UHGV virus genome: UHGV-0197770
DNA length: 36,302 nucleotides
Reading direction: 5' to 3' (one strand)
From: a virus
Shown: positions 112 to 14,340 of the stretch, piece by piece
Layout: every line of letters starts with the position of its first letter
How positions within the stretch are numbered: position 1 is the first letter of the stretch
The notes under the pieces: model-generated
The model's input: only the letters and a program-made list of their open reading frames with translations
Told to the model about the DNA's origin: nothing
Database searches by the model: none
Position numbers and translations under genes: made by a program

Positions 112-852
112 ATGCGTAAAATCATTCATGTGGATATGGACTGCTTTTTCGCAGCGGTGGAGATGCGCGACAATCCCGCCCTGCGCGATATCCCTATTGC
201 TATTGGCGGCAGCCGCGAACGACGGGGGGTGATCAGCACCGCCAATTATCCCGCGCGTAAATTTGGCGTACGTAGCGCTATGCCGACAGGGATGGCGCTC
301 AAATTATGCCCGCATCTCACCTTGCTTCCAGGGCGCTTTGACGCCTACAAAGAAGCCTCAAATCATATCCGCGAAATTTTCTCGCGCTATACCTCGCGCA
401 TTGAACCGTTATCACTGGATGAAGCCTATCTCGATGTCACCGATAGCGTCCATTGCCACGGTTCTGCGACCCTCATCGCCCAGGAAATCCGCCAGACGAT
501 CTTCAACGAGCTGCAACTGACGGCGTCTGCGGGCGTGGCACCAGTAAAGTTTCTCGCCAAAATCGCCTCCGACATGAATAAACCCAACGGCCAGTTTGTG
601 ATTACGCCGGCAGAAGTTCCGACATTTTTACAAACCTTACCGCTGGCAAAAATTCCCGGCGTCGGCAAAGTCTCGGCGGCAAAACTGGAAGCGATGGGGC
701 TGCGGACCTGCGGTGATGTGCAAAAGTGTGATCTGGTGATGCTGCTTAAACGCTTTGGCAAATTTGGCCGCATTTTGTGGGAGCGTAGTCAGGGCATTGA
801 CGAACGCGACGTTAACAGCGAAAGGTTGCGAAAATCCGTTGATCAGACATGA
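112..852 (+). CDS. dinB: DNA polymerase IV (DinB), 3-prime truncated: about 243 host codons fused to 3 phage-derived codons and a stop
   Basis: Translation [26 protein letters not shown]... matches E. coli DinB (351 aa from memory) up to ...RLRKSV, then diverges (DQT-stop) where phage DNA starts. Confidence 0.9.
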
Positions 853-882
853 GATAAATGAAGGGGGATCCGTGAGATAAAT
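851..882. repeat. Direct repeats GAGATAAAT x2 at the prophage terminus; candidate transposase end-binding sites
   Basis: GAGATAAAT at 851-859 and 874-882 (23-bp spacing) within 45 bp of the host junction; a degenerate AGATAA copy at 945-955. Confidence 0.4.
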
Positions 883-1200
883 AACGAATTGGAGTGGGTT
901 AACATGGGTTCTGGTGAACAGAACTGAAATTCTTTTCCGCTATACGATAGATAAGTCGGGCATTGAAATCATCCTTCCTGGCAACTTAGAATCGAGTTTG
1001 CTGAAACATGACCCGCAACAAAAAGGATGATTCCAATGACTACTCAAAACAATAAGCATGATAGCCTGGATTACTCAGAAAAGCCCAAAAGCAAGCACAT
1101 CGTGACGTTCGAGCGCGATTCCGGTAGAAAAGGAGAATCGTCTTCCTCTGCCAATAAAACCACTATGCCGGCAGCCCCTGCCCCAGGGAAAAAATAAACA

Positions 1201-1833
1201 TCATTCATCGTTCGTTGCACGAACGCGCCTGATCTCCACTCTGGCAATCTGATCTGCTGGAATATAGGTTGCCAGAGCTCCCCAGTACTTATCAACCACG
1301 CCTTTATACTCTTCCCATTCGTTACTGCCTGAAGGGCTGCTGTGCGTGACGTAAAGAACCATATCGCCTTTATTCCCCAGGGTAAACGGACCGTTAGGCC
1401 ACTCTTCAAAGTTCCCTGGCAGCCGTGACATCATACCGGAACCATCGCGAAGAATCACTCTGACCTCGGTAACGCTGAAGCCTGTTTGATCAAACATTGC
1501 CTGCCATGCTGAGCTGGTATCGTCAGACCATGAAACATCATTATTCCACAGTAATCTGTACATCCATTTGCGACCGTACCTGCGCCACCACGCACCGCAT
1601 GTAACGGCACACAGAAGTGCTGGTGGTGTTGCCAGCCAGGCATTCAGACCTGCCCACATAACAGCCTGGTAAGCCATCATTGCTGTCAGGCCAAAAATCA
1701 GCGAAGAAAAAGTCACCTCAATGGGCTTGTGGTGATCCTTCAGTCCCACATTCGCAATAAAATACCCAATATAGCCACTGGTCAGGGTCACCAGTGTTGC
1801 CCATGGCAGATTTAACAACGAAACGTCAAACAT
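1201..1833 (-). CDS. Membrane protein of unknown function (about 3 N-terminal TM helices plus ~130-aa soluble C-terminal domain); terminal accessory gene
   Basis: Start chosen at MFDVSLLNL because GGGAG lies 6 nt upstream; hydrophobic segments LPWATLVTLTSGYIGYFIANVGL and VTFSSLIFGLTAMMAYQAVMWAG; lies downstream of an intrinsic terminator. Confidence 0.6.
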   Translation of the reverse strand: MFDVSLLNLPWATLVTLTSGYIGYFIANVGLKDHHKPIEVTFSSLIFGLTAMMAYQAVMWAGLNAWLATPPALLCAVTCGAWWRRYGRKWMYRLLWNNDVSWSDDTSSAWQAMFDQTGFSVTEVRVILRDGSGMMSRLPGNFEEWPNGPFTLGNKGDMVLYVTHSSPSGSNEWEEYKGVVDKYWGALATYIPADQIARVEIRRVRATNDE

Positions 1834-1871
1834 ATTTTCTCCCTGCATCCTGAATACTAAAGAGAGAGCAT

Positions 1872-1905
1872 AAAAAAAGCACGGTAAGGGGTCTACCGTG
1901 CTTTT
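1872..1905 (-). terminator. Rho-independent terminator ending the leftward early operon (bidirectional hairpin)
   Basis: Stem AGCACGGTA / TACCGTGCT (1878-1886 / 1894-1902), 7-nt loop, flanked by A7 on plus strand (U7 on minus) and TTT on plus. Confidence 0.6.
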
Positions 1906-1947
1906 ATACAATAAGGAGATTTTTGAAAGGACTTTAACAAGCAGGAA

Positions 1948-2346
1948 TTATCTGGATTTGTTAACGTCTTTCGTCTCCTCTGGCAGATCTTCATCAAACA
2001 ACCTGCCCTGCATCCGATCCAGTTCTTCTTTTCTGACCCGCTTAACCACGCTGTAGACCCACTGAAGCGAAACACCAAACTTGCGGGCCAGTTCGTGGTG
2101 GTTGCGTCCGTTAAACTCCCTGAAGATTTCCCGGTCGCGCTGACTGACCTTCCATACCATGCCCATCGGGAAATAAACGTTTTGCCCGCCCCAGACCTGC
2201 ATCATTCGGTTCGCGACGGCCTGACCAATCTGGTCGGCAATTGCGGGCTCAATATCAATAATCTCGCGAACGGTCTCAGAGGTATGCTGTGCCAGCTCCA
2301 CCAGGAGTTCCGGCCCTTTACTTCGAAACTGATTCAGGTCGCTCAT
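1948..2346 (-). CDS. Mor/C-family transcriptional activator of middle/late genes
   Basis: 132 aa with C-terminal HTH ELARKFGVSLQWVYSVVKR typical of Mu Mor/C; last gene of early operon as in Mu; GGGAG RBS. Confidence 0.7.
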   Translation of the reverse strand: MSDLNQFRSKGPELLVELAQHTSETVREIIDIEPAIADQIGQAVANRMMQVWGGQNVYFPMGMVWKVSQRDREIFREFNGRNHHELARKFGVSLQWVYSVVKRVRKEELDRMQGRLFDEDLPEETKDVNKSR

Positions 2347-2767
2347 GTTTTACTCCCGCAGCTCTGTGCTGCCACTTCTTCAGTTTCTCAATAACACTGC
2401 TTGCCTGTTCAGTATTGAGCCAGCGCAGGGCGCTGATGCCCGTTTCCCGCTTGATCCACCGCGCTAATGCATTTTCTGAACGGTCACGAACAATGCCGGC
2501 AGCAGCCATTTCAAGCCATAGCGCACGAATTTTCCTGGACTGCGGATGGTTATCCAGCGGTAAACCGGAGCTGGCTTTTCTGGCTGGTTTAACGCGAAAG
2601 CCTTTCTTTTTCATGGATTCCAGCACGCAGTTTAGTTGTGTGGTATCCATTCCTTTGGTTGAGGCTTTACCGGTCAGCCCCTGTAACATCTGGCGGTAGG
2701 TGTCTTCATCCATACCCAGTTCATTACGGGCAATATGGATAAGCTGTATCAGGCGTTTTTTCTGCAT
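2318..2767 (-). CDS. GemA-like protein (Mu gp16 family, DUF1018)
   Basis: 149 aa; N-terminal RLIQLIHIARNELGMDEDTYRQML resembles Mu GemA; sits immediately upstream of Mor as in Mu; AGGAG RBS. Confidence 0.55.
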   Translation of the reverse strand: MQKKRLIQLIHIARNELGMDEDTYRQMLQGLTGKASTKGMDTTQLNCVLESMKKKGFRVKPARKASSGLPLDNHPQSRKIRALWLEMAAAGIVRDRSENALARWIKRETGISALRWLNTEQASSVIEKLKKWQHRAAGVKHERPESVSK

Positions 2768-2768
2768 A

Positions 2769-2975
2769 TCATCTCCTTTTTTTCAGTCTGTCGGCAACAA
2801 TGTCGGTTGCAGCTGGCAGGGTGACTGGCCAGAACAACATGACGGCGGTCATGTACAGGATGTAATGCGCGGTGTCGTAGTGCCTGCCATAGCCCAGGGA
2901 ACGATGAAGTCTTGCGCTGCATGATCCTGCGTACATATACCAGAAAAGAAAACAGACAATGGTTTCAGTAGTCAT
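2769..2975 (-). CDS. Small hydrophobic protein (68 aa)
   Basis: Internal start MTTETIV preceded by GGGGAGG; two hydrophobic stretches. Confidence 0.4.
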   Translation of the reverse strand: MTTETIVCFLFWYMYAGSCSARLHRSLGYGRHYDTAHYILYMTAVMLFWPVTLPAATDIVADRLKKRR

Positions 2976-3195
2976 TCTGAATACCTCCCCATTCGATATG
3001 AATATTACGGGCAGCAATGACAGGGTCGTTATTCCACCATGCACCTGACATGTATTTTTCAACCTGTTCGCGTCCGGCAATAACACCAATTGTGATCCCC
3101 GGCCTGACGTTCTTAAAAAAGGCGCGGGCAAAAAGGTATCTGGCAGATATTCGGCAGGCTTTTAATTTCCGGCTGTTACCTGATAGCGTAATCAT
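2965..3195 (-). CDS. Hypothetical early protein (76 aa)
   Basis: GGAGG 5 nt upstream of ATG; ATGA start/stop overlap with upstream gene indicates translational coupling. Confidence 0.45.
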   Translation of the reverse strand: MITLSGNSRKLKACRISARYLFARAFFKNVRPGITIGVIAGREQVEKYMSGAWWNNDPVIAARNIHIEWGGIQNDY

Positions 3196-3875
3196 CTGGC
3201 CTCCAGTTTCTGTTGTTCCTGCCCACTGACCGGGCGGTGCAGTCTGACGTTCTGCCCTTCACGAAACCCCGCATAGCGCGAGGCGTCGCCATTGCGGCTT
3301 CTTCCCGGTTTACGCGCCCTGGTGGTTTGCGTTTGCGGGTATTTATGTTCCAGCCACTGTTGCATCAGTTCACGCTCATCATCGGTCAGGGCAAAGGACT
3401 GTATTTCACTGATAACGGCCAGTACCCAGCCTTCAGCAAACTGGTCTCCACGGCTGGTACGGGTGGCGTTTTTTATTCTTTTGTTCTGTGCGCTGATATA
3501 CTGCTGACGCGCCTTTTTCAGCTGGCGGACCAGCACTTCCCAGGTGTACGCAGCCAGTGCCGCTCGTTCCCGGTTACCGTAGAACCCCACAGACGGATGC
3601 GTGCCGGGGTGAATGATGGAGTTAACACCAAATGCCTCGCGGATGATGTTCATCAGGCCCAGCATGTAGCGCGGTGGACGGAGACTGCCTGTCGGCCAGT
3701 AATGACTGATGGTTTCATCAATATCACTCATAGCAATGTCGGAATGTGTGATGCCGTGAACATCCATCAGTTTACGGGCTCGGCGCAGTGCCAGAGCGGC
3801 CTCGTGCGGGTTGCCGGATGCGGCCAGCGCCAGCAACTTTTTCAGTTTCTCAATGTGTTTATTCTGGTCTGTCAT
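3192..3875 (-). CDS. Hypothetical early protein, DUF2786-like N-terminus
   Basis: Start chosen at MTDQNKHIEKL (ATGA overlap with upstream stop); motif IEKLKKLLALAASGNPHEAALALRRARKLM resembles DUF2786 phage proteins. Confidence 0.5.
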   Translation of the reverse strand: MTDQNKHIEKLKKLLALAASGNPHEAALALRRARKLMDVHGITHSDIAMSDIDETISHYWPTGSLRPPRYMLGLMNIIREAFGVNSIIHPGTHPSVGFYGNRERAALAAYTWEVLVRQLKKARQQYISAQNKRIKNATRTSRGDQFAEGWVLAVISEIQSFALTDDERELMQQWLEHKYPQTQTTRARKPGRSRNGDASRYAGFREGQNVRLHRPVSGQEQQKLEAR

Positions 3876-6975: not shown

Positions 6976-8745
6976 TCAGTTGCCGTTAACAATGCTGATA
7001 ACACTGCTGCGTGCCGGCGTGGTCAGCGTGGCCATGACTTCATCCAGTGCAGCTTCCGGTACGCCGTCCGGGTACTGTGCCGTTAACTGGCGGTAATGTT
7101 CCGGCGTCCAGGTAAGGCCGTCGGCGCTGAACTTATCGCGCAGGGCTTTCGCGGCCTCCACATGAGTCATGGGACGTTGTTCAGTGCGCGGCCCGCGTAC
7201 GTCAGAGGCCTGACCGCGCTTCGGCATATAGGCCGGAAGTGTGGCGTCATCAATATGTTTATACGGGTCAAGCCGCCCGCCGAACGGCAGCGCCTTCGCC
7301 TTGCGTGCGGCAGCTGCATCTGCGGCGTTGTCTGTACCGGTGACCAGCTCTTCGGTTTCTTTTGCCGCCATCTGCGCCGGGGTTTCCGGCAGGGCTTTGT
7401 AACTTTCGCCAAATACCGCCGCGCCTTCAGCAAAGCCAAACTCGTTCTTTCTGACCTCTTCGACCAGGAAGAACGTCTCGTGGCCGTCCTCACCGGTCAG
7501 AACCACCTGTGCCACATCGCTGCGCCACGGGTTACGGGTAATCATCAGTTTTTCACCGACCAGTACGCCCGGTACCGTTGATACGTCAAATTCAGTGCCC
7601 CGGAACGAGACACGAAGTTTTGGCGTGACTTTGCGGAGTTCTGGTGCCGCCACAGCCAGTTCACGACATACCTCAACGGAAGGCGCTTTTTTCAGCTGCT
7701 CAGCAGTAATCTTCAGCCAGATATCCGTGCGGGTTTTACCGTGGCGGCTGTGAACAGCCGTGGCGTTAAAGTGGCTGCGCCATTTCGCGGCCAGCGCGTT
7801 GAGTTCTTCCAGACTGTGAACCGGCCGGAACTTCAGACCCGGCTCCAGCTTGCGTTCGATAATGTCCCGCGCCTTTTCCACCTGTCCGGTGGCGCGGGCG
7901 TTATGCGGCTTGTGCGCTATCAGGTCAATGCCCAGTGAGCGGCACATGTTTTTCGTCATACCCGCGGTGTTTGCCGAGCCGGGGTCGAGATAGAGTATTT
8001 TTGGCACGCCGTGCAGCACGTCTGCGCCGCCACGCTCCTGCATGGCGTTGATAAGCACAGAACACAGGTTCTCACCGGATTCCGCACCCGTCACATACTC
8101 AACGTAAATCCAGCCGCTGGCATGGTCGGTAATCTCATAACTCCACACGCGGTCACTGGCGATACGGGCAAGGTTAGCGGGCTTGTTCTTGTAGAATTTC
8201 GCGCTGTCCATCACCTGCAGCCCTTTGTGTCCATTGCTCAGGTAGTAAAGCGTGCAGAGCGAGGCATCAATCTGCCAGACGTGATTGGGATGCAGACTGG
8301 CCACTTCGGTATGCGGCGCAGGGGCATCCAGTTGTTCCGGGTGCAGGCCATAGTTACGCAGGGCACGGCTGATGGCATCTTCGGACAACGGGAAAAACTC
8401 ACCGGTGGTTTCATCTGTTCTGCCTGCGGAGATAAAGCCGTTAGCCCGCAGGGTTTCCACTGCATCTGCGATGGAATAGAGACGCTTACCGTTCTTGCGG
8501 GTGGCCTCACGCAGTGTGGCAGATATCAGCGCGGCTTCGTCGCGGGTCAGGGCGCTGCGCCCGGCATCGGCGCGTTTTTTGCGTTTATCAGTCACAGAGA
8601 CCTCCTTCAGCCTGCGCAGCAGAGTGGCGCGGGACATGCCAAGTTCAGCACAGGCAGCGTCGTATATTGCACCGCGTTTACCATGCCCCGCGTCACGTGC
8701 CGCGCGGGCGACATAAACCAGTCGTTCAGTCAGGGCAGCATTCAT
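6976..8745 (-). CDS. DDE transposase (Mu A-like, integrase-core superfamily)
   Basis: 589 aa; N-terminal HTH (LGMSRATLLRRLKE); integrase-core-like segments HVWQIDAS and LYLDPGSANTAG; paired with B-like ATPase. Confidence 0.75.
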   Translation of the reverse strand: MNAALTERLVYVARAARDAGHGKRGAIYDAACAELGMSRATLLRRLKEVSVTDKRKKRADAGRSALTRDEAALISATLREATRKNGKRLYSIADAVETLRANGFISAGRTDETTGEFFPLSEDAISRALRNYGLHPEQLDAPAPHTEVASLHPNHVWQIDASLCTLYYLSNGHKGLQVMDSAKFYKNKPANLARIASDRVWSYEITDHASGWIYVEYVTGAESGENLCSVLINAMQERGGADVLHGVPKILYLDPGSANTAGMTKNMCRSLGIDLIAHKPHNARATGQVEKARDIIERKLEPGLKFRPVHSLEELNALAAKWRSHFNATAVHSRHGKTRTDIWLKITAEQLKKAPSVEVCRELAVAAPELRKVTPKLRVSFRGTEFDVSTVPGVLVGEKLMITRNPWRSDVAQVVLTGEDGHETFFLVEEVRKNEFGFAEGAAVFGESYKALPETPAQMAAKETEELVTGTDNAADAAAARKAKALPFGGRLDPYKHIDDATLPAYMPKRGQASDVRGPRTEQRPMTHVEAAKALRDKFSADGLTWTPEHYRQLTAQYPDGVPEAALDEVMATLTTPARSSVISIVNGN

Positions 8746-8748
8746 TGG

Positions 8749-9660
8749 TTATGCCTCCAGCCCGTTAATCTGTGGCGTCGGCTCAGTCAGCCATGAAGGC
8801 GCGACATCGCCTGTTGGCTCGTCCGGCAGGTCAAATGTGGAGCGCAGGCTACGCGCTGTGCTTTCCAGTTGACAGACCAGACCTGCCATGAAGTCTCTGG
8901 GGGTATCAATCATGTTTTCAGCACAATATGCGCACAGTGTCTCAAAAGCGCTGGACAGTCGAACGGCGATGGCAGATTCCGCCTCAACCGCTAATGCTGT
9001 CACTTCCGCCCGCAGCTTCTTAACCTCCTCATCAGGCTCAGGCAGCTGAATACGGGATTTCTTTTCCAGTCTGGTAGAGAGAGAATCAATTTTTTCATTT
9101 TTATCGGCGAGTACGCGCTGTTGTGCTGCGTTGGTTTCGCGCGCTTCGCGCAGGGCCTGGCGAAGTTCGCGTACTGACATGCGATCAACGTCGTCAAGCG
9201 TCAGGCCGGCAACTGTGCCGCCGTCGGCCAGTTCGGCAAGCTCTTCGTCGTCTTCTGTCATTAATTCGAAAAGTTTGGCTTTTCCCAAATGTGCCAACGT
9301 TGGCACATTTGGTTTCAGCGCCGGGGATAAGTATTTTGTCGATGCTTGCATCATTCTCACAGATGTCCGGTATGCCAGCCCCAACTCACTTTCAAGAATC
9401 TTTATAAACTCCCCGTGTGGTTCATTTTCCTTAAGGATTATCAGCCGCTTACCTGCCTCCAGCATGGCCTCAGCGCTCTGTGCCATATAAAAGCGTGCCT
9501 CATGGACAACACGATCGCGCTCATAAGGCAGACCATCGCCGAACTGTTGCATGATTTCCATGCGATGCTGTGTCATGGCGTTTAGACTGACATTGAGATC
9601 ATCCGACAGCGGTACCTCGACGTTCAGTTCAGTGCTAACCGGTGATTTGGTGCGTCCCAT
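8749..9660 (-). CDS. Hypothetical early protein (303 aa), acidic coiled-coil rich
   Basis: AAGGAG RBS 6 nt upstream; between regulators and transposase; no family recognised. Confidence 0.5.
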   Translation of the reverse strand: MGRTKSPVSTELNVEVPLSDDLNVSLNAMTQHRMEIMQQFGDGLPYERDRVVHEARFYMAQSAEAMLEAGKRLIILKENEPHGEFIKILESELGLAYRTSVRMMQASTKYLSPALKPNVPTLAHLGKAKLFELMTEDDEELAELADGGTVAGLTLDDVDRMSVRELRQALREARETNAAQQRVLADKNEKIDSLSTRLEKKSRIQLPEPDEEVKKLRAEVTALAVEAESAIAVRLSSAFETLCAYCAENMIDTPRDFMAGLVCQLESTARSLRSTFDLPDEPTGDVAPSWLTEPTPQINGLEA

Positions 9661-10200: not shown

Positions 10201-10288
10201 ATGCACCGTGTTCCTGTTAGGTTATGATGTACTCTATTGGGTCTATTGTACACACCCAAATGAGTGTGTCAAATTGAGATATGTTCAA
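10201..10288. promoter_or_regulatory. Divergent promoter/operator region between early operon and repressor gene
   Basis: Inverted repeats TGTAC-N15-GTACA (10228-10252, containing tandem TCTATTG half-sites) and CACAC-N8-GTGTG (10251-10268). Confidence 0.5.
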
Positions 10289-10766: not shown

Positions 10767-11774
10767 ATGTCTGAGCAGACCATTGAAGTTAAACACGTTG
10801 TAGTTCACATTTTAGACAAACAACAAAATGGAGACGCTTCTGAGAGATTGAGTCCTGAAGAAGGTCTAGTTACTGAAGCCTCTCAGCGCCTTATAAACGA
10901 TATTTGTGCAAAATATGCAGGACGCACAGGTAAAGGTTATGGCTATTTTGAAGGCGATACGGATAACTATCCTATGGAACGAATGGCTGGGGACTTTCTC
11001 GAAGGTGTTGATGATTTCTACCAAAGTTCCTGCCGAATGATGCATCACCTGACGGAACGTTCTCAGCGAGAAAACATGGCTACTGGTGGTTATGTTCTTT
11101 TTGCAAATATCGTGATAGGACACAATGAACACCTGTTGATAGCTATTGTAAGCGCTACCATTGGGTCCACTGTCACAGATGATTTTAACATCCAAGATAG
11201 TACCTATCTTGATATTGCTAAGCTGCGTATGGCTGGGCGCATTGACTTAACCGCGTGGGAAAGTGGCGCAGAGCGCTATATCAGTTTTCTTAAGGGGCAA
11301 GGTAATGTTTCAAACTATTTTAAACAGTTCCTAGGCTGTAATGATGTCTTAATCGCCAAACGAGAGTCTGAAAAGTTACGTGACGTTTTAAAAGCATTTG
11401 CGGCAGAGAAAGGACTTGACGGCGCTGAAAAAGATGCATTTCTTAAGAGTGCGTTTGAACACTTACATGCACTAAGTAAGGCTGGTGAACCACTTAGTCT
11501 TGAAACCCTTGTTAATGCCATTTGGCCCCAGGCTCCCGAGGAGTTATCTGGTAAACTTGCTGCTGAAGAGTTGGAGTTATCGGATGGCTTCGTTCCTGAT
11601 GGTCGAGTCATTCGGGCTCTGGTATCTTTTAAAGGCAAGTCTAAATATTGGGAACTTAAGTTTGACCGGGAAGGGAAAACTGAAGGCTATATTGATTATG
11701 ATCCGGAAACAAATATTATCACCCTACGTAATGTACCTGAAGAATTTAGGGAAATGTGGATGACTGAGGTTTAA
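10767..11774 (+). CDS. NdpA/YejK-family nucleoid-associated-protein homologue (phage-borne paralogue); candidate sensor of a two-gene defence cassette
   Basis: 335 aa (same length as E. coli YejK); blocks GGYVLFANIV..HLLIAIV, YLDIAKLRMAGRIDLTAWESG..ERYISFLKG...FLG and C-terminal NIITLRNVPEEFRE align to my recollection of YejK; AAGGTGGA RBS; AT-rich. Confidence 0.6.
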   Translation: MSEQTIEVKHVVVHILDKQQNGDASERLSPEEGLVTEASQRLINDICAKYAGRTGKGYGYFEGDTDNYPMERMAGDFLEGVDDFYQSSCRMMHHLTERSQRENMATGGYVLFANIVIGHNEHLLIAIVSATIGSTVTDDFNIQDSTYLDIAKLRMAGRIDLTAWESGAERYISFLKGQGNVSNYFKQFLGCNDVLIAKRESEKLRDVLKAFAAEKGLDGAEKDAFLKSAFEHLHALSKAGEPLSLETLVNAIWPQAPEELSGKLAAEELELSDGFVPDGRVIRALVSFKGKSKYWELKFDREGKTEGYIDYDPETNIITLRNVPEEFREMWMTEV

Positions 11775-11776
11775 TC

Positions 11777-12982
11777 GTGGCGATTTCATTTGAGATGCTG
11801 ACAGCTCTGTATCGTCGTATGGAATTCCAAGAGGGGTTTCGTGTCGGTTCGCTGTTGCTCTTAGATCAGTCCGATTGTGATCTGGTTGATACTTTGCTTG
11901 ATGATCCTCGTGAATATGGTCTTTCTATTGATACAGGCACTATCGCTCCAGGTAACACGATCATCCTACGTGTGACGTCACCACGGAGTGGACTGGGACT
12001 TGTGTTTTCCACCCATGAAAAATTGCTAAATGCTCCAAAGCATCAGTGCCTTGAGCCAGCTAATTACTTCATCCTAGAAACAAAATTTCGTAATGATGAT
12101 GAAGATATCCCCGTTTTCATCAGCAACTACCGGAAGATTCTCGAGTTCGTTAACCTGCTAAAAGAGGCCGCGGCCTACTTTGATAACTCAACTTGTCAGT
12201 TAGTTTTTCTGAAAAAAGAAGTTATCAAGCTATTACCGCACTTCGCTGCAGAAAATGTACAAAATTTGCAAAGGGAGTATCTTGATAACCTTATAGCTTG
12301 TTTCAATGATGATACCCATAAGGATCAGAAGCTAGATATTCTGATTGAAAGTATTCAAGCAGTTAGTGATGGAATTGATTCACCTCTAGTATTCGCTTAT
12401 TTACTGGACAATATTCAGCGTCTGCATGAAAAGTTTCTGAAAGGGTATCGTATCTACTCTTCTGGATTCTCTTATGACAAAGTAATGGATCAACTGCGTG
12501 CTGCAAAAGTCGAAGAAATGGGTAAAATCCACAAAGCGTTTTCAGATATCCAGAACCATATACTTGGCATTCCTGTTGCCTCTGTTATCGTAGCTACCCA
12601 ATTCAAAGTGGCTACGAAATGGTCAGGCCAAGGGATAACAAACACAATAATTCTTCTGGGATGCATTTTTGCTGCAACGTTAATCTGGCTGGCACTTTCG
12701 AACCAGATGCAATCTATAAAGGCCTTAGGCGAAGAAATTGAATACAAAGAAAAACAGATTAATAAGGAATATTCCTTCATTAAAGATGACGTGGCTGGTG
12801 TATTTAGCAGTATTTCTGCGCGACTAGACACGCAGAAACGTACGTTCTGGATTATACGTGGTGTTCTAGTTATGGGAATTATTACCGCTATCACTGTTTA
12901 TTTTTGGTACACAAAACCAGCCCTTGACTTCATGCAGTACTTGATTCACTGCATGAAGTCTTACTATTCGGTCAAAAGTTGA
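11777..12982 (+). CDS. Protein with ~270-aa soluble N-terminal domain and two C-terminal TM helices; candidate membrane effector
   Basis: GTG start 2 nt after upstream stop with GAGG RBS (coupled); hydrophobic helices ITNTIILLGCIFAATLIWLAL and FWIIRGVLVMGIITAITVYFWY; no family recognised. Confidence 0.55.
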   Translation: MAISFEMLTALYRRMEFQEGFRVGSLLLLDQSDCDLVDTLLDDPREYGLSIDTGTIAPGNTIILRVTSPRSGLGLVFSTHEKLLNAPKHQCLEPANYFILETKFRNDDEDIPVFISNYRKILEFVNLLKEAAAYFDNSTCQLVFLKKEVIKLLPHFAAENVQNLQREYLDNLIACFNDDTHKDQKLDILIESIQAVSDGIDSPLVFAYLLDNIQRLHEKFLKGYRIYSSGFSYDKVMDQLRAAKVEEMGKIHKAFSDIQNHILGIPVASVIVATQFKVATKWSGQGITNTIILLGCIFAATLIWLALSNQMQSIKALGEEIEYKEKQINKEYSFIKDDVAGVFSSISARLDTQKRTFWIIRGVLVMGIITAITVYFWYTKPALDFMQYLIHCMKSYYSVKS

Positions 12983-13742
12983 GGATAATGAGTTCCTTCT
13001 TGCGACTGGATTTGCCAGTGATCTTGAGGTTGTAGCTGATATCAACCGACTGAATATTTAGACCGTTGAATGCCTGCCGCATTTCCGGGATATCGTTCAC
13101 CGATATAATCATCTTCCCTTTGATCCTGCGTGCTAAATCTGCCATATGATCATAATTTTCTAGTCCGAACTCCACACCATAACCTTCCGTTCCCCAGTAT
13201 GGAGGGTCACAGTAGAACAACGTATGCGGGCGATCATATCGTTCTATGCACTGTTGCCAGTCCATGTGTTCTATGACCGTTCTGGAAAGCCGCAGGTGTG
13301 CCGCTGACAGTTCTTCTTCAATACGCAGCAGGTTGAAGCGTGGCGGGGATATGGTGGAGGTACCAAAGCTGTGCTCCGCCACCTTGCCCCCAAACGCCTG
13401 CTTCTGAAGGTAGTAGAACCGTGCTGCACGCTGGATATCCGTCAGTGTTTCTTCCGGGGTGATCTGCAGCCATTTGTAGATCTGCCGGCTGACCAGCGCC
13501 CATTTGAACTGGCGTACAAATTCTTCCAGATGATGTTTTACCACCCGATACAGGTTCACCAGCTCACCGTTGATATCATTAATGACTTCGATCTTGCCGG
13601 GTACCTTAAGAAAATAGAGCGCTGCTGCCCCACAAAACGGCTCCACATAACATTCATGCGCCGGAAACAGCGGCAGGATGTGTTTTGCAAGGCGGCGTTT
13701 GCCACCAATCCATGGAACGATGGGTAATGTCTGCATTTTCAT
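12972..13742 (-). CDS. Dam-family N6-adenine DNA methyltransferase (orphan)
   Basis: WIGGKRRL, EPFCGAAALYF and DPPY motifs parallel E. coli Dam; no adjacent restriction endonuclease; 3-prime end overlaps the convergent upstream gene by 11 nt. Confidence 0.8.
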   Translation of the reverse strand: MKMQTLPIVPWIGGKRRLAKHILPLFPAHECYVEPFCGAAALYFLKVPGKIEVINDINGELVNLYRVVKHHLEEFVRQFKWALVSRQIYKWLQITPEETLTDIQRAARFYYLQKQAFGGKVAEHSFGTSTISPPRFNLLRIEEELSAAHLRLSRTVIEHMDWQQCIERYDRPHTLFYCDPPYWGTEGYGVEFGLENYDHMADLARRIKGKMIISVNDIPEMRQAFNGLNIQSVDISYNLKITGKSSRKKELIILNF

Positions 13743-13924
13743 AATCTGTAAGCCTTTTACAATTATAAAAAATATGGCAGGCTAGTCTGGTCTCGCGAGA
13801 CTGACTGAACCTTGGTCGGCTCACAGCGCATTCCTGTGGGGCGATGGCCAGCCCGGTGTTCGGGTACCGGGCTGGTCGTTCTTTCAAAGCCATCATGCAG
13901 TGCACGTTTACATCTTCACTATTA

Positions 13925-13945
13925 ACGCTGTTTAAAATCCGTATC
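13925..13945 (+). promoter_or_regulatory. Candidate late promoter (copy 1 of a shared TTTAA(A/T)ATC motif) upstream of lysis/head operon
   Basis: TTTAAAATCCGTATCCCG about 50 nt upstream of the first late gene; related motif recurs at 21124, 27041 and 33341. Confidence 0.4.
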
Positions 13946-13989
13946 CCGCCACATTTGTGATGCTGTCTCCACCAAACGAGGAGACACAC

Positions 13990-14340
13990 ATGAAAAACCT
14001 GAAAAAATTCATTCCCCCTGTTAAAAAACCTCGCCTCAGCGGCTGGCTGCTGACCTCAGTGCTGTTGCTGGGCATCATCGCTCTGGTCTCGCCACAGCAG
14101 TTGCCTGTTGTGATCTACAAGCTGGCACTCATCACGCTGGCAGCAGTGCTGGGGTACTGGCTTGACCGTTCGCTCTTCCCCAAAGCCCGTCCCGGTCAGT
14201 ACCTGAAACATGAAGACAGGCTGATGGCTGAAGGGCGTTTCCCTGTGCAGACCGGCCTTCACCTTGTATTTTCTGCTGCGTTAATCCGCCGTGCACTGAT
14301 TGTTGCAGCTGTCTGTCTGGCTGTTGCGATGGGGCTTTAA
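13990..14340 (+). CDS. Membrane protein, 3 predicted TM helices; holin candidate
   Basis: Start at MKNLKKF with GAGGAG 6 nt upstream; first gene of lysis cassette directly before endolysin. Confidence 0.45.
   Translation: MKNLKKFIPPVKKPRLSGWLLTSVLLLGIIALVSPQQLPVVIYKLALITLAAVLGYWLDRSLFPKARPGQYLKHEDRLMAEGRFPVQTGLHLVFSAALIRRALIVAAVCLAVAMGL

Follow-up and report, generated by a model that had tools for sequence, protein, structure and literature searches.

Mu-like prophages that lack mom carry orphan DNA methyltransferases related to Dam, namely, Hia5, Hin1523, and Nme1821 (Drozdz et al., PMC3299994), which are nonspecific, silent in lysogens, and probably under the control of Com (PMC3299994). 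In phage B3, a gene for a Com homologue precedes ORF48, the product of which belongs to a subfamily different from that of Hia5 and the activity of which was not shown experimentally (PMC3299994). M.EcoMIV, another orphan enzyme, belongs to the D12 class; its transcript was significantly less abundant than that of dam in the lysogen, and no methylation motif was assigned to it (PMC4659465). Here, we describe an orphan D12-class (alpha-group) DNA methyltransferase gene, located at positions 12972 to 13742 (minus strand) of the 36,302-nucleotide (nt) virus genome UHGV-0197770 (the window, i.e., the whole stretch of DNA that was analyzed), together with a conserved structured RNA motif on the opposite strand, in front of its start codon. 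By analogy with Mom, we favor, with a probability of roughly 0.6, the reading that this gene encodes a stand-alone alpha-class (D12) amino-methyltransferase with a Mom-like, lytic-phase anti-restriction role, whose expression would be controlled through its leader. An anti-restriction or regulatory role had already been put forward in the initial annotation of the window and is a sensible default for an orphan phage methyltransferase.

An orphan alpha-class methyltransferase in the prophage backbone

The gene starts with ATG, encodes 256 amino acids (aa), and is identical to WP_000783856.1, which is labeled "DNA adenine methylase" in RefSeq; it is a real, intact, orphan alpha-class gene, ordinary in kind and already annotated. 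Its product matches Pfam PF02086 (MethyltransfD12) with an E value of 7e-28 and 98.4 bits (gathering cutoff, 22) over profile positions 1 to 248 of 253, as well as the PADLOC model MTase_II PDLC03253 (382 bits) and phrog_56. The motifs come in the order of the alpha class: motif X (PWIGGK) is followed by motif I (EPFCGAA), by a hairpin that represents the target-recognition domain (TRD; residues 105 to 137), and by motif IV (DPPY). Motif I, responsible for AdoMet binding, extends over EPFCGAAALYF (residues 34 to 44; positions 13611 to 13643, minus strand) and aligns to EPFVGAGSVF of Escherichia coli Dam (EcoDam), while the target-recognition hairpin region (residues ~105 to 137, QRAARFYYLQKQAFGGKVAEHSFGTSTISPPRF) is encoded at positions 13332 to 13430 (minus strand) and the catalytic DPPY, read from the sequence, corresponds to residues 179 to 182 (positions 13197 to 13208, minus strand). 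The N-terminal PWIGGKRRL...EPFCGAAALYF region is conserved across the family, the hairpin is highly conserved within the B3 ORF48 family, and all catalytic motifs, DPPY included, are invariant in 86 homologues. Alignments also place the Shine-Dalgarno sequence of the gene (positions 13752 to 13757, minus strand) inside an invariant block, AAAAGGCTTAC.

These results bear out two statements of the initial annotation, namely, that the gene encodes an adenine-type methyltransferase with a DPPY motif and that it has no partner endonuclease. With respect to the latter, no gene with a nuclease domain, as would be expected of a type II restriction-modification partner, is present within several kilobases; the neighboring genes encode the repressor, an NA37 protein, a transmembrane (TM) protein, a holin, an SLT transglycosylase, and an Rz-like protein, and family-wide, the neighbors vary. 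The enzyme had furthermore been called Dam-like, which holds at the level of fold and family only: identity to EcoDam is ~25%, and the residues that read GATC are changed. Of the curated models, the TIGR00571 "dam" subfamily was passed narrowly (116.9 bits; cutoff, 114.85), and the Dam equivalog NF008152 scored 69.2 bits against a cutoff of 441.

The closest solved structures are those of DpnM, M.CbeI, and EcoDam, each with ~25% identity (EcoDam, E = 1e-14). The GATC-reading residues of EcoDam were reportedly identified by Horton et al. in 2006 as K9, L122, R124, and P134. In the window enzyme, these align to P10, K120, A122, and S132, substitutions that are kept family-wide, and the intercalating aromatic residue is retained (EcoDam Y119 aligns to F117). 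Since the contact residues have become P, K, A, and S, a GATC target finds no support, and the alignment indicates a specificity that is probably not GATC; the target may be short or relaxed. GATC is the most underrepresented 4-bp palindrome in the window (110 observed versus 177 expected; ratio, 0.62), an observation that does not discriminate between the hypotheses, and no GATC occurs within the intergenic region between the methyltransferase and holin genes. Among other candidates, M.EcoGII was ruled out as the identity of the enzyme, being of the beta class, and M.BceJIV (GTWWAC) was ruled out as a lead to its specificity, as its structures were not among the PDB sequence matches at E values of up to 10.

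Phage homologues with 59 to 67% identity over the full length include B3 ORF48 (66%), VP882 gp37, phiE125 gp27, phi1026b gp26, a phiHAP-1 protein, KS9 gp25, and Stenotrophomonas S1 gp23 (64 to 66% for those of B3, VP882, phiE125, phiHAP-1, and KS9), and genome matches at 65 to 76% identity span many beta- and gammaproteobacteria. A TRD block (LTDIQRAARFxYLQ..FGGKV) is conserved and the target-recognition loop is nearly invariant across homologues, suggesting a single specificity common to the B3 ORF48 family. Members of this family sit in at least four unrelated phage architectures: in B3, the gene is part of the late/tail region; in VP882, it adjoins a tail gene; in phiE125, it follows the lysis genes; and the fourth setting is that of the BcepMu-like prophages.

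The window itself represents a transposable, BcepMu-like E. coli prophage. Strains M-17 and KE50, among others, carry chromosomal prophages that match the region with 100% identity, and the region is collinear with Klebsiella phage KP12 and Escherichia phage PhiKM, the latter being classified as a Bcepmuvirus. A leftward early operon (Ner-like, IclR-HTH, DUF3102, DDE transposase, ExeA/MuB-like, Gam, and Mor) is followed by the rightward repressor gene, the cargo, the leftward methyltransferase gene, and a rightward late operon with genes for the holin, SLT transglycosylase, Rz-like protein, and terminase and further genes. Of 5426 complete E. coli genomes, 535 (~1 in 10) contain the DNA of the methyltransferase gene, those of ST131 among them. 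In ~25 related prophages from more than 10 enterobacterial genera (Escherichia, Klebsiella, Mixta, Pantoea, Erwinia, Photorhabdus, Xenorhabdus, Serratia, Citrobacter, Brenneria, and others), the place and orientation of the gene, between the immunity and lysis modules, are constant and the DNA on either side of it is variable. ST131 strains have the convergent methyltransferase gene directly after the repressor gene, with no cargo between the two; in the same slot, KP12 carries a different small gene and Photorhabdus and Xenorhabdus prophages carry ~2.3 kb of other DNA. The G+C content amounts to 37 to 45% in the cargo cassette of the window, ~50% in the methyltransferase gene, and 50 to 66% in the backbone. 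Some BcepMu-like prophages (L095-98 and L102-104; L-numbers are the labels of the comparison loci that we collected) are without the methyltransferase. Taken together, the methyltransferase gene belongs, in Enterobacterales, to the backbone of BcepMu-like transposable prophages, and the cargo next to it forms a unit of its own.

A structured RNA motif opposite the methyltransferase leader

The ~190 nt 5' of the methyltransferase start are highly conserved among relatives, even where genes have been inserted beyond them. Within this region, RNAalifold and a covariance model delineated a structured RNA motif of ~120 nt (positions 13773 to 13891, plus strand), antisense to and head-to-head with the methyltransferase gene. 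A covarying 5' hairpin is followed by a three-way junction core and a U-rich tail, with the junction consisting of a 4-bp closing stem (GAAC/GUUC), a CACAG/CUGUG arm with a 7-nt loop, and a long G+C arm; the CACAG/CUGUG stem is invariant in the 28 closest sequences and shows slight variation in the larger set of 64 matches described below. For 28 distinct sequences, RNAalifold yielded -27.1 kcal/mol on the plus strand versus -14.8 kcal/mol on the minus strand. In the resulting 38-pair structure, 94.6% of the cells were paired, versus 30 to 50% when the partners were slid, and 18 pairs were compensatory; none of 500 shuffles reached the observed values.

A covariance model built from 20 sequences scored the window motif at 122 bits and matched, across distant taxa, the loci of B3, VP882, and phiE125 and 47 of the 59 other methyltransferase loci that had not been used for training. 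The same model gave no match in 14 loci with the cargo cassette only or in Sinorhizobium phage phi2LM21. All 63 full-length matches lay on the strand opposite the methyltransferase gene, and matches on the sense strand were few, weak, and partial, covering single hairpin arms. In the alignment of 64 matches, which was fitted to the model, 25 of 26 pairs were compensatory and 94.8% of the cells were paired (18 to 53% in slid controls). The motif is found directly upstream of the B3 ORF48-type methyltransferase gene or of its com gene, with its 5' end 2 to 67 nt from the methyltransferase ATG; in 14 loci that distance is 163 to 217 nt (with L045, at 1,310 nt, as an outlier), and each of these has an intervening Com-like open reading frame (ORF). 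Further positions of the motif are L004 3705 to 3824, L125 1849 to 1967, and L126 1849 to 1970 (all minus strand), in addition to ~60 other loci.

Neither at the gathering threshold nor at E values of up to 10 did the element have a match in Rfam 15; ARAGORN reported nothing in the intergenic element, and in E. coli, RefSeq has nothing annotated at the position of the RNA. Small hypothetical ORFs are annotated over the motif in B3 and VP882. We conclude that a conserved RNA motif exists at this position, on the strand opposite the methyltransferase gene, and that it recurs across the loci listed above; it is apparently a widespread, covarying, and so far undescribed motif that is coupled to the B3 ORF48-type family. 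The reverse assignment, to an RNA on the methyltransferase-sense strand (either a 5' leader riboswitch or a Com target), is disfavored by the difference in folding energy, by the many G-U pairs of the plus strand that would become A-C, and by the exclusively antisense full-length matches.

A candidate promoter for this RNA is a sigma-70-like sequence (TTTTCA-16-TACAAT; positions 13736 to 13763, plus strand), a weak match to the consensus that overlaps the start codon and Shine-Dalgarno sequence of the methyltransferase gene and that, judged from its sequence, would be correctly placed for transcription starting at ~13770. In B3, VP882, and phiE125, all flanking genes run opposite to the RNA, which must therefore have its own promoter there and is necessarily antisense to transcripts reading into com or the methyltransferase gene. 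We infer that the RNA might silence a harmful enzyme in the prophage, acting in cis as an antisense element or by promoter interference. Tentatively, and at somewhat less than even odds, the methyltransferase gene and the RNA might represent a portable two-part module that has spread through unrelated temperate phages of beta- and gammaproteobacteria, sometimes with com inserted, in which case the RNA would exemplify an undescribed class of cis-antisense regulators that, similarly to type I toxin-antitoxin systems, silence a harmful enzyme in lysogens. A bolder version, in which the methyltransferase uses the RNA as a cofactor or guide, is much less likely.

As for Com itself, 14 of the ~50 non-Enterobacterales RNA-positive loci examined had a Com-like ORF (CxxC...CxxC) that separates the RNA motif from the methyltransferase gene, making Com an optional part of the B3 ORF48-type module, present in about a quarter of its members. 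Zinc-finger ORFs of this kind (IRCGxCxxKLA...IKCPRCxxxN) precede the methyltransferase gene, as in B3, in a subset of betaproteobacterial loci (L063, L073, L074, L049, L043, L077, L084, L079, L034, L025, L040, L045, and L004), and in some loci the ORF is apparently fused in frame with, or overlaps, the methyltransferase start. In the window, a 111-aa ORF (positions 13654 to 13989, minus strand) was ruled out as Com-like, since it lacks a zinc-finger motif; it overlaps the conserved RNA.

The cargo cassette and the convergent junction

Downstream of the repressor gene, the window carries a low-GC cargo cassette (positions 10767 to 12982, plus strand) that is of interest here for context only and that comprises a YejK-like NA37 gene (10767 to 11774) and a gene for a 401-aa TM effector (11777 to 12982) with C-terminal TM segments. 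This cassette is present in 19 of 5426 complete E. coli genomes. In our survey of 37 loci encoding the NA37+TM pair, the two genes were paired in every locus, and ~28 of the loci had no such methyltransferase nearby: these were BcepMu-like prophages (L095-98 and L102-104) and ~20 lambdoid phages, in which the cassette lies beside the genes for antiterminator Q and DUF968. A convergent methyltransferase gene adjoins the cassette only in window-type prophages (L090-L093; L099 is truncated) and in phi2LM21. Two other loci (L094 and L105) have the cassette on the other side, between the methyltransferase and holin genes; in BcepMu-like prophages the cassette uses two different insertion slots. The alphaproteobacterial phage phi2LM21 (L088, positions 628 to 3718) has the same layout of NA37, TM protein, and convergent methyltransferase as the window, with 31% identity for the TM protein and 44% for the methyltransferase, which belongs to the same family as the window enzyme, a recurrence that may reflect coincidence or a weak preference and that is outweighed by the evidence for independence.

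In its two-gene architecture, the cassette resembles DS-1 and type II PANGU, which combine a YejK-like nucleoid-associated protein (NAP) with a TM effector. It is to be regarded as a distant relative only: the scores against the NCBIfam DS-1 antiphage models were below threshold (63.7 versus a cutoff of 330 and 75.9 versus 315), as was a match to KwaA. Cloned on their own, both DS-1 (PMC13092281) and a type II PANGU system with a TM effector (bioRxiv 10.64898/2026.04.06.716658) protect E. coli, and such operons have been proposed to sense genome degradation rather than methylation (PMC13092281; bioRxiv 10.64898/2026.04.06.716658).

At the 3' junction, the initial annotation had the methyltransferase gene ending 11 nt inside the convergent TM gene, which is correct: positions 12972 to 12982, with both stop codons, are common to the two ORFs (12972 to 13742, minus strand, and 11777 to 12982, plus strand). 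This 11-nt overlap is found only in junctions of the window type (the window, Mixta L007, and L093); in Brenneria L023, the cassette and the methyltransferase gene are adjacent without overlapping. The repressor and methyltransferase genes are ancestrally convergent, irrespective of the TM gene, and the 11 nt shared by the two ORFs seem to be an incidental result of the site at which the cargo was joined. Close to it, within the last 19 codons of the TM gene and 11 nt from the methyltransferase stop, lies a perfect 13-bp inverted repeat, GACTTCATGCAGT / ACTGCATGAAGTC (positions 12926 to 12938 and 12948 to 12960; z = -3.8 and -3.7), followed on the plus strand by UUACUAUU. A consensus scan flagged no canonical terminator between the TM and methyltransferase genes, having missed this repeat because of its 9-nt loop. 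In relatives without the cassette, a hairpin directly follows the methyltransferase stop, and the Brenneria L023 homologue has an analogous repeat. The 13-bp repeat is a candidate terminator or insulator, located in coding sequence between convergent units, and the junction probably retains an insulating hairpin.

Some further observations were made around these genes. In ST131 prophage L005, a second variable cargo slot lies between the RNA motif and the holin gene (positions 7903 to 9225), with a 72-aa ORF, a 243-aa P-loop-like ORF (GPVGSGKS), and a 134-aa ORF; the corresponding slot of KP12 holds another gene. The sequence TTAACGCTGTTTAAAATC (positions 13922 to 13939, plus strand), ~50 nt 5' of the holin start, is kept in all relatives, and a degenerate second copy of it is found beside the RNA motif where genes have been inserted (L005 and L006), making it a candidate for a Mor-dependent late promoter element. 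A near-consensus sigma-70 promoter (TTGACA-16-TACAAT; positions 10245 to 10272, minus strand; 11 of 12 matches) faces the Ner-like gene and is presumably the early promoter of the prophage.

Proposed role, alternatives, and comparison with known systems

According to our favored reading, the methyltransferase would be silent in the lysogen and switched on in lytic growth, when it would modify progeny DNA, most likely to N6-methyladenine (m6A), allowing the phage to survive restriction in the next host. Its expression is probably controlled via the 5' leader, where the antisense ~120-nt RNA in front of the start codon, the likely promoter of which overlaps the ribosome-binding site of the methyltransferase gene, might keep the enzyme off in the prophage, either as a cis-antisense repressor or through promoter interference. 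Several points weigh against this reading. Because the gene is oriented away from the late operon, its late expression would need a separate promoter, and no promoter of this kind was found. The RNA promoter is weak, and no conserved sigma-70 promoter was found across distant relatives; alternatively, a longer transcript could have this RNA as its 3' end. The region from 13743 to 13990 contains no CxxC...CxxC Com-type ORF, making Mom-type control only an analogy here. The modified base is uncertain, as the second-best relative in the PDB, M.CbeI, is an N4-methylcytosine (m4C) enzyme with a DPPY motif, and membership in this family therefore does not fix the base. Additionally, as of 2015, there was no homologue of >65% identity with a known recognition site (PMC4659465).

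Among the alternatives, it seems unlikely that, instead of counteracting restriction, the enzyme has a regulatory or epigenetic function in the phage life cycle (acting, e.g., in transposition, packaging, or the lysis-lysogeny switch). The gene does adjoin the immunity region, and there are precedents for such roles: among orphan phage Dam homologues, P1 Dam acts in packaging, and host Dam is involved in the control of Mu mom and of IS10/Tn5. However, a portable accessory function agrees better with the distribution of the family over at least four unrelated phage architectures, and the gene is absent from some BcepMu-like prophages, among them L095-98 and L102-104. That the enzyme methylates N4 of cytosine rather than adenine is, in our view, very unlikely, even though M.CbeI (7M6B), an alpha-class m4C enzyme with DPPY (PMC8616854), aligns with it over the full length and has the hairpin motif F-[GS]-G-x-V in common with it; the two enzymes share only ~25% identity, m6A enzymes typically have DPPY, and every curated family model names adenine specificity.

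The remaining alternatives concern the neighborhood of the gene. A functional link to the NA37+TM cassette, with the methyltransferase marking self DNA for it or otherwise working with it, had been raised in the initial annotation, and the adjacent and convergent arrangement in the window, as well as the recurrence of the three-gene layout in the unrelated phi2LM21, would be in line with it. We nevertheless consider such a link highly improbable and, on the evidence of the survey, unsupported: the two elements differ in abundance (535 versus 19 E. coli genomes), each occurs without the other at most loci, the slot is empty or filled with other cargo in relatives, and the cassette, which can lie on either side of the methyltransferase gene (L094 and L105), has the G+C content of low-GC cargo and not that of the backbone. 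Moreover, related operons of a NAP and an effector protect alone, with genome degradation as their proposed trigger (PMC13092281; bioRxiv 10.64898/2026.04.06.716658), and the ST131 homologue of the methyltransferase is poorly transcribed in the lysogen (PMC4659465), where cargo downstream of a repressor gene would be expected to be expressed. The backbone status of the gene and its independence from the defence cassette thus remove a tempting but wrong link. Antisense interference between the convergent transcripts, likewise suggested in the initial annotation, could occur at the 3' end, but it is neither a conserved nor a necessary feature. In its full form, repressor-cargo transcription would run antisense through the methyltransferase gene and silence it in the lysogen, or the reverse would occur. 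The lack of a terminator flagged by the consensus scan would fit this explanation, as would the ancestral convergence with the repressor operon; furthermore, the G+C hairpin and U-rich tail with which the RNA motif ends would halt such plus-strand read-through ahead of the lysis genes. We regard it as distinctly unlikely, since the 13-bp hairpin and UUACUAUU just before the overlap could terminate plus-strand transcripts, since the methyltransferase stop is immediately followed by a hairpin in relatives that lack the cassette, and since the overlap is not conserved (L023).

Returning to the Mom-like, leader-controlled anti-restriction enzyme that we favor, its RNA motif would offer a concrete, testable handle on the question of how temperate phages silence DNA modification genes that are harmful to themselves, to which Mu mom with Com has provided the only answer to date. 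In addition, about 1 in 10 complete E. coli genomes carry this enzyme, the probable non-GATC specificity of which bears on the interpretation of methylomes and on the engineering of phage host range.

Compared with described enzymes, the window enzyme shares its Pfam family and the alpha-class motif order with E. coli Dam, T4 Dam, and DpnM, but identity is ~25% and the GATC-contact residues differ. Hia5, Hin1523, and Nme1821 resemble it in their Dam-related fold, DPPY motif, and orphan status and occupy the mom slot of Mu-like prophages; Hia5 belongs to a separate subfamily, with B3 ORF48 outside the 1000 sequences closest to Hia5 (PMC3299994), so that relaxed specificity is a mere possibility for the window enzyme. 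In the com-mom operon of Mu, likewise a transposable phage, early expression of the DNA-modifying gene would do harm, posttranscriptional control of the gene is tight, and the modification protects progeny DNA from restriction (PMC3299994). Mom, however, is an unrelated enzyme with an acyltransferase fold that makes acetamido-adenine, and the window enzyme is not a member of its family; unlike that of mom, moreover, the control region in the window has no GATC or OxyR sites. Mu has a divergent promoter, momP2, and to our knowledge, no structured antisense RNA is known for mom.

A much closer counterpart is found in ST131. Strain EC958 has a prophage of the same type, and the protein encoded there at the equivalent position (WP_000783854.1) shows 88% identity to the window enzyme; it very likely corresponds to M.EcoMIV on prophage Phi2, an assignment based on prophage position and Pfam class and not on the accession number. 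The C-terminal ~20 codons of the methyltransferase differ between the window and ST131 types, and the ST131 locus, unlike the window, has no cargo between the repressor and methyltransferase genes and has two extra leftward genes between the RNA motif and the holin gene. B3 ORF48, annotated as a "Dam modification methylase," differs from the window gene in its setting, as it lies inside the late tail operon with the Com homologue ORF47 directly upstream, whereas the window gene is flanked by the immunity and lysis modules, is on the opposite strand, and has no Com ORF. Like the window enzyme, however, B3 ORF48 is a phage-borne orphan in a transposable phage with the same conserved TRD loop, and it is preceded by the same antisense RNA motif.

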